Below, piece by piece: positions 3,615 through 5,998 of a stretch of 64,000 bases of DNA. The notes beneath the pieces were generated by a model. That model made no database searches and was not told where the DNA came from. It saw only the letters and a list, made by a program, of their open reading frames with translations. The DNA lies in assembly GCA_963833465.1 (NCBI GenBank), contig CAWHXW010000002.1, positions 288,523 to 352,522 on the forward strand. The letters are read 5' to 3'. Position numbers and translations under genes: made by a program. This DNA comes from Ignavibacteriota bacterium (GTDB taxonomy: Bacteria > Bacteroidota > Ignavibacteria > UBA10030). How positions within the stretch are numbered: the stretch's first letter is position 1; each line of letters begins with the position of its first letter.

Positions 3615-4403
3615 TTACTTTCTAACAGGCTGAATTCTCCAATTCGATAAAAATATTCCGCATGCGATTCCGACATTAAGTGATTCTGCTTTACCGAAAC
3701 GTGGAATACTTAAAACCTCATCAACTTGCCGAAGAATATCTGGATTCACGCCATGCGCTTCACTTCCTAAGATAAGAACAGATTTTTCGTGAAGTGTTTT
3801 GGATCCAAGCGGCTTTCCATCAAGTGCTGTTGCAATGAGTTTGAAACTTTCAGATTGAAGATGAGAGATTGCGGTCTTCAATTCAAGATTCTCAAATACT
3901 TTCAAATGAAAAATTGAACCCGAAGTCGCACGCACAACTTTCTCGTTATATACTGAAACACATCCTTCACTTAAAAGAACCGCATCAACACCAAACCAAT
4001 CGCAAGTACGAAGAATTGTTCCAAGATTTCCAGGATCATTGATATGGTCGCAGGCGACTATTAATTTTGCAAATTGAAGTTTTTCTATTCCGAATTCTTC
4101 AATTTGTTGATGGACAAGTGCCACAACTCCTTGAGAATGGACTTCGTCAGAAATTTGTTTTAACTGTACTTCTTTTAATTCTTTTATTGGAATATTGCGT
4201 TTTTTTGCTAATGTCAACAATTGCTGGTGTTCAGATTTCAGACTTGCTTCTGGAAGTACTGCGATGAGTTCGATATGAAAATCCGATTGTAAAGCATCCT
4301 GAAGCGGACGCCAACCCTCAAGAATAAATTTTCGCTCACTATCCCGATTTTTCTTCTGCTGAAATGAGCGAAGATATTTTATTTCAGATTGAGTTAAATT
4401 CAC
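3615..4403 (-). CDS. TrmH/SpoU-family RNA 2'-O-methyltransferase
   Basis: DPGNLGTILRTCDWFG, ILGSEAHGV, AESLNVGIA motifs. Probable start is GTG at 4403; the ORF extension to 4652 runs through repeat DNA. Confidence 0.92.
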   Translation of the reverse strand: MNLTQSEIKYLRSFQQKKNRDSERKFILEGWRPLQDALQSDFHIELIAVLPEASLKSEHQQLLTLAKKRNIPIKELKEVQLKQISDEVHSQGVVALVHQQIEEFGIEKLQFAKLIVACDHINDPGNLGTILRTCDWFGVDAVLLSEGCVSVYNEKVVRATSGSIFHLKVFENLELKTAISHLQSESFKLIATALDGKPLGSKTLHEKSVLILGSEAHGVNPDILRQVDEVLSIPRFGKAESLNVGIACGIFLSNWRIQPVRK

Positions 4404-4449
4404 AATGGAATATAGAGAAAAAGTGAAGGAGAAACAAAACCCATGAAAA

Positions 4450-4585
4450 TCGTAGCGTAGGCGAATAAGGTTCGTTAGTGTCACCTCAGCTTTAGAGCAG
4501 GAGGACCTGTTCTCCGTAGCTTTAACGCAGGAAAATCCCCGCCAAAAAGATGGCGGACGAGTCGACGGGTAAACCGACGGGCAGG
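4450..4585. repeat. Cluster of degenerate REP-like short palindromes and short direct repeats
   Basis: cctcagctttagagcaggagg and ctccgtagctttaacgcagga are two related AGCTTTA units. Hairpin CCGCCA-aaaaga-TGGCGG. Three GACG(A/G)G units spaced 8-12 bp. Confidence 0.5.
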
Positions 4586-4644
4586 AGTTCAGTATGACAT
4601 TGTCGTATTTTTGAGATATGTTCATGATAGAGCATGTTGTGTAG

Positions 4645-5073
4645 ATGCACAAACTGGCAGTTCATGCAATGGAACCAATGGTTCAACCTGAAATACATCT
4701 GATCCGGCCAGCGGAACTGGTAATTCAGACAAGAGAACTATTGATCCGGACGATGGAACTCATGGTTCGGACAGTGGAACTAAGAACCGGGACAACGGAA
4801 CTTGTAGCTCGGAACACGGAACTCATGGTTCAACCAGTGGAACTAGTAACAGGAACAACAGAACTCATGATTTTTCAAACGGAACTTACAGCTTGGATGA
4901 CGGAACTAATAGTTCGGACAGCGGAACTAATAACCCGGACAATGGAACTTGTGGCTTGGGCAACGGAACTTGGGGTTTTTTTGATGGATTTAACGGTTTC
5001 CGCTGTGTCACCCCGAACTCGTCCCGCTGTACGGGATGCCGTACAACGGCATTTCGGGGTCTGCTTTTCCTAA
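4645..5073 (+). CDS. Possible heptad-repeat protein (E-L-x-x-x-T-x)n encoded by the 21-bp array; coding status uncertain
   Basis: A 142-aa frame is open across the array, but it is antisense to all neighbours, has no clear RBS, and its tail runs through a REP. Confidence 0.3.
   Translation: MHKLAVHAMEPMVQPEIHLIRPAELVIQTRELLIRTMELMVRTVELRTGTTELVARNTELMVQPVELVTGTTELMIFQTELTAWMTELIVRTAELITRTMELVAWATELGVFLMDLTVSAVSPRTRPAVRDAVQRHFGVCFS
4651..4971. repeat. 21-bp-period degenerate tandem array (13 perfect GAACT cores plus 3 decayed units)
   Basis: GAACT at 4714, 4735, 4756, 4777, 4798, 4819, 4840, 4861, 4882, 4903, 4924, 4945 and 4966 (exact 21-bp spacing). Decayed in-phase units at 4651, 4672 and 4693. 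Approximate consensus GAACTnnTrGTTCGGACArcG. Confidence 0.95.
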
Positions 5074-5104
5074 AAAATGGATGCTGAAACAAGTTCAGCA
5101 TGAC
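5006..5104. repeat. Inverted pair of (T)GTCA-tagged REP-like palindromes; left copy interrupted by two 15-bp mini-hairpins
   Basis: TGTCACCCCGAACTCG[TCCCGCTGTACGGGA][TGCCGTACAACGGCA]TTTCGGGGTCT at 5006-5062 and GATGCTGAAACAAGTTCAGCATGAC at 5080-5104 (reverse complement GTCATGCTGAACTTGTTTCAGCATC). Confidence 0.8.
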
Positions 5105-5160
5105 TTCTTAGAAGCGTCGAGGTCAAAAGACTTTAGGGACGAGGCTAAGAGAACGATAAC

Positions 5161-5194
5161 CAATAGCCCCTTCCGGGTAACGAAGGGGCTATTG
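5161..5194 (-). terminator. Intrinsic terminator-like hairpin downstream of 5209..5928
   Basis: CAATAGCCCCTTC-cgggtaac-GAAGGGGCTATTG, a perfect 13-bp stem 15 bp after the stop codon; U-tract imperfect. Confidence 0.75.
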
Positions 5195-5208
5195 AAATTA
5201 ATAAACGA

Positions 5209-5928
5209 TTATTTCTTTGCTGTATCTGGAGATTGAGCAGGAACTTTAGCGGCAGTTGTTATATTCTTTTTAGCCCGCACCACCGCATAGCGCAGCGGTT
5301 TAATGGCTTCAAACTCTCCCAAAATTTCCGGCTTGTTATAGAATTGCGCAGAAGCCGCGCCGTAAATAAAGTCTGCCGCTTCTTCCACAGCATCCATTGC
5401 CTGCCATGCCTGTGCCGTGGCTTCCGGTACGTCTTTATGCTTCGCCGATTCCTGTGTTGAATCCACAGTACCGAGCGATGCCGCAGCAGCAACCAACGCA
5501 TCTTTATCTGTTGCCAACAGATTGCCTTTTGTGGTCAGTACCGCTGCATATTTATCCCATGTTGTTGCAATGCCTTTTGCCCACTTTATCAGTAAGGCGG
5601 TGGAATGATTATTTTTTTCACCGACAAAGAATTCTTTAAGCTGCGGACTTCCTTTCGGGAATGCACGTTTGGCTCCTCCTTGAATACGGCGGATTTCTGC
5701 CAGCGCTATGTCCCGCGCTTCAACTTCTTGTTCCGTTAATTGTTCTTTATCGGATGTTTCGCCGCCGGAAGCAGCGATTTTATCTTCCATCGTTGCCACA
5801 AGCCCGTTATAATTCGTAAGGAATTGCGAAGTAACGCCGCGCGGTTCTAATGTCGGAAGATTTGTTTGTGCAAGAATCGTAAGCGCTCCGCTTTCTTGCT
5901 TCAATCCTTGACTGGTTGGATGTGCCAT
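5209..5928 (-). CDS. Hypothetical all-helical protein with two internal repeats
   Basis: 239 aa, AGAGGAG RBS, Ala/Glu/Lys-rich. The halves end in similar motifs, GAKRAFPKGSPQLKEF and GAASAQFYNKPEILGEF. No signal peptide or TM. Confidence 0.85.
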   Translation of the reverse strand: MAHPTSQGLKQESGALTILAQTNLPTLEPRGVTSQFLTNYNGLVATMEDKIAASGGETSDKEQLTEQEVEARDIALAEIRRIQGGAKRAFPKGSPQLKEFFVGEKNNHSTALLIKWAKGIATTWDKYAAVLTTKGNLLATDKDALVAAAASLGTVDSTQESAKHKDVPEATAQAWQAMDAVEEAADFIYGAASAQFYNKPEILGEFEAIKPLRYAVVRAKKNITTAAKVPAQSPDTAKK

Positions 5929-5998
5929 AGTTAAAAGCTCCTCTATAAGTTATTTGTACGTTGTGATTTGGTTAGCGAGGCAGGAGAAACATTTACCC

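Follow-up and report, generated by a model that had tools for sequence, protein, structure and literature searches.

Phased 21-bp arrays beside genes for two-repeat helical proteins in Ignavibacteriota: candidate DNA-binding platforms

Several described systems pair an array of short, regularly spaced repeats with a protein. Iterons, known from pPS10, F, P1 and R6K, are direct repeats of about 19-22 bp that stand in some 3-9 units beside the gene of Rep, a protein built of winged-helix domains with strands. The parC-ParR system of R1 and the omega heptad arrays of pSM19035 employ ribbon-helix-helix dimers on units of 7-11 bp, and their loci include a gene for a partition ATPase or an actin-like protein. 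Among RNAs, ToxI-type units of about 36-45 nt occur in 2-6 copies, so far as known always upstream and on the same strand, and form pseudoknots; their toxins are ToxN/AbiQ-like endoribonucleases. The sponge RNAs CsrB and RsmZ carry many GGA motifs within a few hundred bases, set in hairpin loops, and go with a CsrA/RsmA partner. Here we describe an array of another make from the genome of an Ignavibacteriota bacterium (G000). Within the window, the whole stretch of 64,000 nucleotides of contig CAWHXW010000002.1 that was analysed, 21-bp units with the invariant core GAACT lie beside a gene for a 239-aa helical protein, and the pairing of gene and array recurs among relatives of that protein.

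An earlier note, made from the letters of the window alone, had drawn attention to 13 GAACT cores at exact 21-bp spacing (4714-4966) without indels, and this holds in every detail: the copies start at 4714, 4735 and so on to 4966, and 12 of 12 gaps measure exactly 21 bp. Shuffling the window 200 times at the mononucleotide level gave GAACT chains of two copies at most, and in the whole 3.18-Mb genome the window array is the only chain of at least four, all others having at most three. Chains of any 5-mer with at least five copies occur in G000 twice at period 21, never at periods 19, 20, 22 or 23, and once at period 24. The other 16 nt, which the note took to differ in every unit, are not free. 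They agree between units at 48% and follow the consensus GAACTAATAGTTCGGACAACG, in which GGACAA forms a second, weaker conserved block; the window array is a degenerate tandem repeat. Core units match the consensus at 13-20 of 21 positions, as against the lower values of three further units on the side away from the gene (Table 1), and the decay reported there is therefore real. The gene-side unit at 4966 is weak as well, with 10 of 21 positions. The inverted half-site GAAC-N5-GTTC, noticed in several units, is perfect in 4 of the 16 between 4651 and 4986 (4672, 4756, 4819 and 4903), and the impression of a GC-richer block is borne out by a G+C content of 44-52% over 4400-5950 vs 32-40% in the flanks. 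The array does lie downstream of the gene, and is convergent with it; 222 bp separate the last unit, which ends at 4986, from the gene's stop (5209), where the note had roughly 240 bp.

The earlier note went on to propose an undescribed pairing of protein and array, and the flanks of homologous genes bear this out. An autocorrelation scan, in which loci of the protein's own subfamily were counted if they had at least 900 bp of flank, found a 21/42-bp array adjoining the gene in 23 of 25 assessable loci, the window included and two of them (L017 and L028) being identical in sequence. Among L002-L017 the array was present in 15 of 16 at the first threshold, with a weaker one in the sixteenth, L010; among metagenome loci with enough flank it was present in six of eight. 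The PQLLE family (NCBIfam NF052641) was found in 11 of 201 genomes of the phylum, one of which, G097, holds 14 matches. Its loci have a 21/42/63-bp array in 21 of 30 cases by autocorrelation, and a 5-mer chain at L031 brings this to 22 of 30. A second protein family of the same size and helix layout shows the same association, as described below for G000. Taken together, these sequence comparisons indicate that the pairing of gene and array is a conserved trait of a protein superfamily.

What is conserved is the pairing and the period, not a particular sequence or arrangement. In the window protein's own subfamily the array lies downstream of the gene and convergent with it; it lies upstream in L005, in the p2 and p3 modules of G000 and in the PQLLE family, there mostly just upstream. 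Proteins at least 50% identical share the core GT-Y-N-GG-R, which becomes CCGG(G/T)A at 36% protein identity and NGGTAAA at 25%. In G097, chains were found at 7 of the 12 paralog loci fetched, and these display six different cores (TATCC, TTGAG, TTACT twice, CTCCT, TGCAA and CAGAT). Unit number varies greatly, and unit identity within arrays ranges from about 0.55 to 0.95. Some arrays consist of two arms, the unit motif being turned round at a central point (GAGTAAC|GTTACTC, for instance), as in L052:2131-2700, L035:2100-2900, L056:2131-2700 and L053:900-1500; the variable parts of the arms are not complementary, the inversion being limited to the unit motif. No conserved neighbour gene emerged among 14 loci compared. 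Gene and array appear to behave as a self-contained, horizontally mobile module.

Three side observations belong to these loci. Genes with a type IX secretion C-terminal sorting domain lie near 5 of 14 PQLLE loci (including L062:6870-10444, L066:7389-8915, L068:6694-9579 and L073:3265-10016), which probably merely reflects the abundance of such cargo genes in the phylum. On the reverse strand of L022:1170-1604 every unit contains a Shine-Dalgarno-like GGAGG (for example ATTAGGAGGT), in 14 phased copies. Finally, the PQLLE paralogs L063 and L064 (contigs C7 and C2 of G097) encode identical proteins and are nearly identical over 170 bp upstream and about 140 bp downstream, which points to a recent duplication of the module; at the thresholds used, no array was detected within 1.5 kb of either.

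The window's own genome offers further examples. Five regions of G000 are periodic at 21/42 bp: three adjoin genes whose helical products measure 236-239 aa, a fourth is an orphan array and the fifth is a coding, Gln-rich stretch. Both period-21 5-mer chains mentioned above adjoin genes of this kind. In the second module (C4:600300-601693, that is L076:301-1694) an array of 24 units of 21 bp with the core aCACAAtG runs for 504 bp without an indel, about 180 bp upstream of the gene for p2, a 236-aa helical protein with an Ala/Pro tail. About 13 units with a bipartite core, GGaAA-N4-T..CAT, make up the array of the third (C4:642647-643849, L077:348-1550), which lies about 200 bp upstream of the gene for p3, a paralog of p2 with 35% identity; three hairpins separate array and gene, as in the window. 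The window protein has no significant sequence similarity to p2 or p3 (BLASTP E 0.3-38; hhalign probability 3-8%). In the models the proteins are of equal length, their helices correspond one by one within a few residues, and the tails are similar.

The p3 array is also informative on how arrays change. Orthologs of p3 retain it, and each unit has its counterpart in the alignment. What sets two orthologous arrays apart is an internal indel of 42 bp, a length of whole units, and unit differences at the gene-proximal end, a pattern that does not support the growth from one end suggested in the note from the polar decay in the window. An orphan array of the p3 type, inverted and with about 23 units, lies on another contig (C3:1025570-1026060, L078:1571-2061); tblastn found no p2/p3-like gene near it. 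Beside it a segment of about 400 bp is duplicated, at about C3:1024400-1024800 and 1025070-1025470.

The protein itself has so far escaped annotation. It matches no Pfam or PHROGs family and no NCBIfam model above threshold, and its 32 relatives at 90% clustering are all unnamed or labelled hypothetical. At E <= 0.001, a profile search of 1.84 billion proteins retrieved 219 representative clusters. The gene is present in 5 of 61 related genomes, and the named records among its relatives are metagenome-assembled genomes labelled Candidatus Kryptoniota, Ignavibacteriota or Bacteroidota/Bacteroidetes. The AlphaFold model is all-helical, without a strand, at a mean pLDDT of 82.5. Against NF052641, whose curated cut-off is 80 bits, the window protein scores 17 bits (E 0.0036, profile positions 28-206 of 211), and the intermediates L003, L002 and L005 reach 34-58 bits, with E from 2e-8 to 7e-16. 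Its motifs SPQLKEF (95-100) and KPEILGEF (199-206) are PQLLE-like endings that agree with the family's two-repeat all-helical layout of about 210-240 aa, the motif of the PQLLE paralogs being D(K/D)PQLLE(A/I/S)LG. On these scores and motifs the window protein is a distant PQLLE relative, below NCBI's membership threshold. The viral fold library BFVD gave no convincing match to it, viral contigs yielded no relative with the patterns used, and the ESM Atlas returned unnamed clusters only, the nearest Pfam-bearing ones at 0.87-0.89 and thus below the 0.9 lead threshold.

How does this arrangement compare with the systems named at the outset? One close analogy is with iterons and Rep, which likewise combine direct repeats phased at about two turns with an adjacent gene for the (here presumed) binder. 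A two-domain protein would meet a bipartite unit in both, and specificity differs between replicons as cores differ between modules. Unlike Rep, the window protein is all-helical, has no strand in its model and carries no Rep Pfam domain; fold searches yielded generic helical bundles only, a remote relation to Rep being beyond their reach. Unlike iterons, the arrays hold 13-24 units and the modules are chromosomal, at least three per genome and with 14 matches in G097, with no replication genes conserved nearby. Several modules on one chromosome argue against the array as a replication origin. The parC-ParR and omega arrays offer a second analogy, as they also consist of many short, strictly phased cores, direct or inverted, on which a small protein encoded alongside forms a cooperative filament or solenoid. 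They differ from the present arrays in that the window protein has no strand, the units measure 21 bp and no partner gene is conserved.

Resemblances to RNA-based systems have to be considered as well. Like ToxIN, CptIN and TenpIN, the modules have tandem repeats by a single protein gene, often with hairpins between, cognate pairs and a patchy, mobile distribution. They depart from them in their 21-bp units, in 13-24 copies (13 + 3 in the window), in occurring in either orientation, and in lacking a fold signal and a ToxN domain. The window units carry two GGA each (TCGGAC and GGAACT), as in CsrB/RsmZ. A sponge of this type was rejected: CsrA (PF02599) was not found in the 99.8%-complete G000, control genomes being positive, there was no Rfam match, and other family members have arrays that do not share GGA. 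The note's dismissal of a CRISPR array is upheld, the constant part being 5-8 nt in a unit of 21 nt and the variable parts 48% related, as against repeats of about 23-50 nt and unrelated spacers of similar length in CRISPR. The window neighbours are a SpoU methylase and orphans, with no cas gene among them; cas genes were not searched genome-wide. In VIPR systems, which are described as phage-encoded, Vipr is a RAMP protein whose protomers polymerise at a fixed step on a vrRNA of GGY/NN repeats with a 5-nt period. The likeness lies in a protein encoded beside an array of a fixed short motif plus variable letters; the differences lie in the period of 21, the helical-bundle fold and the want of a relative among viral contigs with the patterns used.

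Literature searches returned nothing on PQLLE, and under the topics of 21-bp repeats, iteron-like repeats and 21-nt periodicity nothing on this pairing. In a preprint (10.64898/2026.10.21.760802, section 2.3) the periods named are 60-79, 18, 5, 10, 8 and 7 nt, not 21. Its methods (10.64898/2026.10.21.760802, methods 4.19) remove multiple-of-3 periods with a lag-3 peak, and its supplementary figures could list a 21-nt cluster. Within the limits of these searches, the gene-array pairing appears to be undescribed.

We favour, tentatively and at a little short of an even chance, a reading in which the array is a phased DNA binding platform for the adjacent two-repeat protein; the note had listed such a platform among its three alternatives. 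The array would act as non-coding, double-stranded DNA. Each 21-bp unit spans two turns of B-DNA and presents a short core, in many cases joined by a weaker second block at a distance of about one turn, and all sites would therefore face one side of the helix. Each unit could take one protein, with its two repeats on one block each, and 13-24 copies would then align into a nucleoprotein filament of 270-500 bp. Lys/Ala/Pro tails are present in three protein families. In H1-like proteins tails of this type bind DNA, and here they may add unspecific contacts. Specificity, as embodied in the core sequence, would change along with the protein. The complex might serve self-titration or regulation, anchoring, or silencing. 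That DNA rather than RNA would be the target is suggested by several observations: the period equals two B-DNA turns in every family, irrespective of the core, array position and orientation relative to the gene vary freely, the inversion in two-armed arrays is confined to the unit motif, and the tails recur in three families. Conserved positions also tend to reappear after half a unit: the circular autocorrelation of the information profile is -0.19 at lag 5 and back at 0.02 at lag 10, with 9 of 36 arrays above 0.2. What the sequences show is the linkage, the strict phase, the make-up of core and variable part, the want of a coding signal and the indifference to relative orientation; binding by the protein, DNA as its target and the filament are inferred.

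Several points weigh against the platform. The half-unit signal is weak. No DNA-binding fold was recognised. Foldseek against the PDB gave no match at E <= 0.001, and the top score of a wide VIA-align search, Z 8.8, went to generic helical bundles such as talin and vinculin and lies within the tool's stated helical noise. The folded part is acidic, with a pI of 5.1-6.6 for residues 1-215 in 22 of 23 aligned members, and most PQLLE paralogs have a pI of about 5 and no basic tail. An array of 13-24 sites far exceeds a regulator's need, a fixed protein footprint on RNA would give a conserved period equally, and the T-run and hairpins that adjoin the arrays would go well with a transcription unit. 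As to linkage, no array was found at L020 and L024, with about 1.5 kb of flank each, nor was one detected at 8 of the 30 PQLLE loci, and the detection thresholds were chosen after the first arrays had been seen.

Could the array instead act as RNA, be translated, or have nothing to do with the protein? Transcribed from its own promoter, it would yield a phased-repeat RNA on whose cores the adjacent protein assembles, one protomer per 21 nt; we consider this main rival, akin to the note's processed transcript, rather unlikely. In one variant the variable 13-16 nt might be exposed for pairing in the manner of a guide array; in another the RNA might hold the protein in an inactive state, like a type III toxin-antitoxin RNA or a sponge. 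A short fixed core plus a variable segment beside a cognate protein is the anatomy seen in the arrays of CRISPR, TIGR and VIPR, and the tolerance of any relative orientation is likewise CRISPR-like. The preprint cited above groups CRISPR, TIGR (18 nt) and VIPR (5 nt) as array-encoded RNA systems and describes as 'beads on a string' an array followed by its inverted copy, of which only the fixed n-mers are complementary (10.64898/2026.10.21.760802, section 2.3); the arrays of L052, L035 and L056 resemble this description. A weak promoter-like site before the window array, a T-run and hairpins after it, and three traits that would fit a mobile conflict module, namely patchy occurrence (5 of 61 relatives), expansion of paralogs (14 matches in G097) and raised G+C, add to this side. 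The variable segments do not behave like spacers, however, as they agree at 48% within the array and are conserved unit for unit between orthologs. They match their own genome no more than shuffled units do, and show no complementarity to the adjacent gene, with no match beyond 10 nt; two ideas, that the units are guides against the own genome and that the array is an antisense of the gene or a template for it, were rejected on these respective grounds. Nor does the array fold better than shuffles, minimum free energy z-scores being near 0 on both strands of most arrays (-0.01 for the window + strand). A per-unit hairpin GTTCG-loop-CGAAC, with apparent compensatory changes in L006, was dropped, the pairing register varying between arrays and the z-scores being near zero. 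Rfam 15 over 4300-5300 gave best matches of 12-18 bits vs gathering scores of 50-97, and ten further loci gave one unrelated sub-threshold match, outside the arrays. Of a two-arm array, one arm would bear just the core's complement; the protein is acidic, no known RNA-binding fold was seen in it, and RNA binding leaves unexplained why 21 nt is exactly two DNA turns. The boldest form, a new class of array-encoded ribonucleoproteins in which a helical protein polymerises at a 21-nt step and 13-16 variable nt recognise nucleic-acid targets, and which would give Ignavibacteriota, Kryptoniota and Bacteroidota a helical-bundle equivalent of VIPR, TIGR and CRISPR, strikes us as quite improbable.

The coding alternative, the note's rapidly diversifying heptad partner peptide, fares worst. 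It takes the + strand frame 4645-5073 as the gene of a 142-aa heptad-repeat peptide that partners the neighbouring helical protein; the frame begins with ATG and is open over the entire array, the corresponding frame is open in many related arrays, the period equals seven codons, and the repeat products of L011 and L012 are Arg-rich beside an acidic protein. Codon positions tell otherwise. Across 230 pooled units from 19 related arrays, unit positions 5-6 are GG with 93-94% conservation and form bases 2-3 of a codon NGG whose first base, unit position 4, is free (C 44%, G 34%, T 17%), which places R, G or W at one position, the reverse of what protein-level selection leaves. Stops in frame A are not depleted, with 10 observed vs 14.7 expected by column resampling over 20 arrays; the window array alone has 0 vs 1.5 expected (P 0.15). 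L003, L009, L010 and L013 have internal stops in the heptad frame, L002, L003, L005 and L010 are closed in all three frames of that strand, and L003 and L005 in all six; among 16 PQLLE arrays, 6 lack a frame open over 80% of their length, 4 of these being two-armed. A Shine-Dalgarno sequence was not found before 4645, whereas the 239-aa gene has GAGGAG, and the frame has no Pfam or NCBIfam match. This reading is disfavoured by its sequence pattern, and we regard it as highly improbable. A last alternative, that the protein does not touch the array and the array is a cis-acting or neutral feature travelling with the gene (DNA that is curved or stiff, a hot spot for recombination or slippage, an insulator or a selfish satellite), seems to us distinctly unlikely. 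In its favour, unit number and homogeneity vary greatly, an orphan array exists without a gene, and some family members have no array. A host-wide factor or a physical property, on the other hand, needs no separate core for each paralog in one genome, and would not hold a 5-8-bp core invariant amid drift elsewhere. The pairing moreover survives inversion of the gene relative to the array, and elsewhere in the 3.18 Mb arrays of 21-bp period are limited to the orphan p3-type copy and the coding Gln-rich stretch. Whatever probability these four readings leave falls to something else.

The features of the locus are collected in Table 1. The note had the array bracketed by REP-like hairpins: hairpins are indeed present on both sides, but they are not of the REP/BIME type, because the flanks (4440-4600 and 4995-5110) have no second copies in G000 by blastn, bar one partial match of 31 nt. 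A partial, 87% copy of the hairpin ATGCTGAA..TTCAGCAT lies at C4:642150-642180, about 460 bp before the p3 array. In a related metagenome contig the same hairpin reads GCCGAA..TTCGGC, with both sides of the stem changed. Short contigs from other samples, none of which spans the array, match 5006-5104 and then diverge; nearly identical DNA occurs in samples of the freshwater-sediment and soil type. The T-run with TTTTTGA-N3-GATTTAA recurs by eye at the equivalent position in L006, L007, L011-L013, L015, L021 and L025. On the far side, the listed frame of a SpoU-type RNA methyltransferase (345 aa, 3615-4652, - strand) starts at a TTG inside the array region; its true start is probably near 4400 and the array intergenic, since the Pfam domains fit the product of 3615-4400.

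Table 1. Coordinates of the array, the adjacent gene and surrounding elements in the window.
Feature	Position	Strand	Remarks
G+C-rich hairpin followed by GATTTTCC, terminator-like, far side of array	4538..4557	-	7 pairs, 5 G-C
Weak sigma-70-like match ATGACA-17-TATGTT, 9/12, just before array (candidate)	4594..4622	+	2 matches in region vs shuffle mean 2.2
Open frame of 142 aa across array, heptad xELxxxT, judged untranslated	4645..5073	+	no Pfam/NCBIfam match, no Shine-Dalgarno
Three decayed units in the same 21-bp register	4651..4713	no strand	consensus match 13, 12, 11 of 21
13 units of 21 bp, invariant core GAACT, consensus GAACTAATAGTTCGGACAACG	4714..4986	no strand	Tandem Repeats Finder detects parts only
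T-run and TTTTTGA-N3-GATTTAA element, gene-side array end	4975..5000	no strand	by eye
Two short hairpins (TCCCG/CGGGA, TGCCG/CGGCA) inside CCCCGAA/TTCGGGG closing stem, then TCTGCTTTTCC	5012..5071	no strand	read from sequence
Hairpin ATGCTGAA-loop-TTCAGCAT followed by CCATTTTTTA, terminator-like	5081..5101	-	both stem sides changed in a related contig
14-pair hairpin, terminator-like, immediately past the gene's stop codon	5160..5195	-	14 pairs
Gene for 239-aa all-helical protein	5209..5928	-	two similar halves of ~100 aa and disordered Lys/Ala/Pro tail; distant PQLLE superfamily member
Shine-Dalgarno GAGGAG upstream of the gene's ATG	5938..5943	-	read from sequence

The array provides a first handle on a protein superfamily without known function that extends over 219 representative clusters. 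It also presents rare, non-coding tandem arrays of two-turn period as fixed partners of one protein fold and not as random satellites. If the partner is RNA, the modules would join the small group of array-encoded RNA-protein systems as a further member. If the protein binds DNA, it would represent a sequence-specific DNA-binding fold of a new kind, one for which nature supplies many cognate pairs, as the six cores within one genome illustrate. Such modules would then constitute a ready set of orthogonal protein-site pairs and a model for the co-evolution of specificity.

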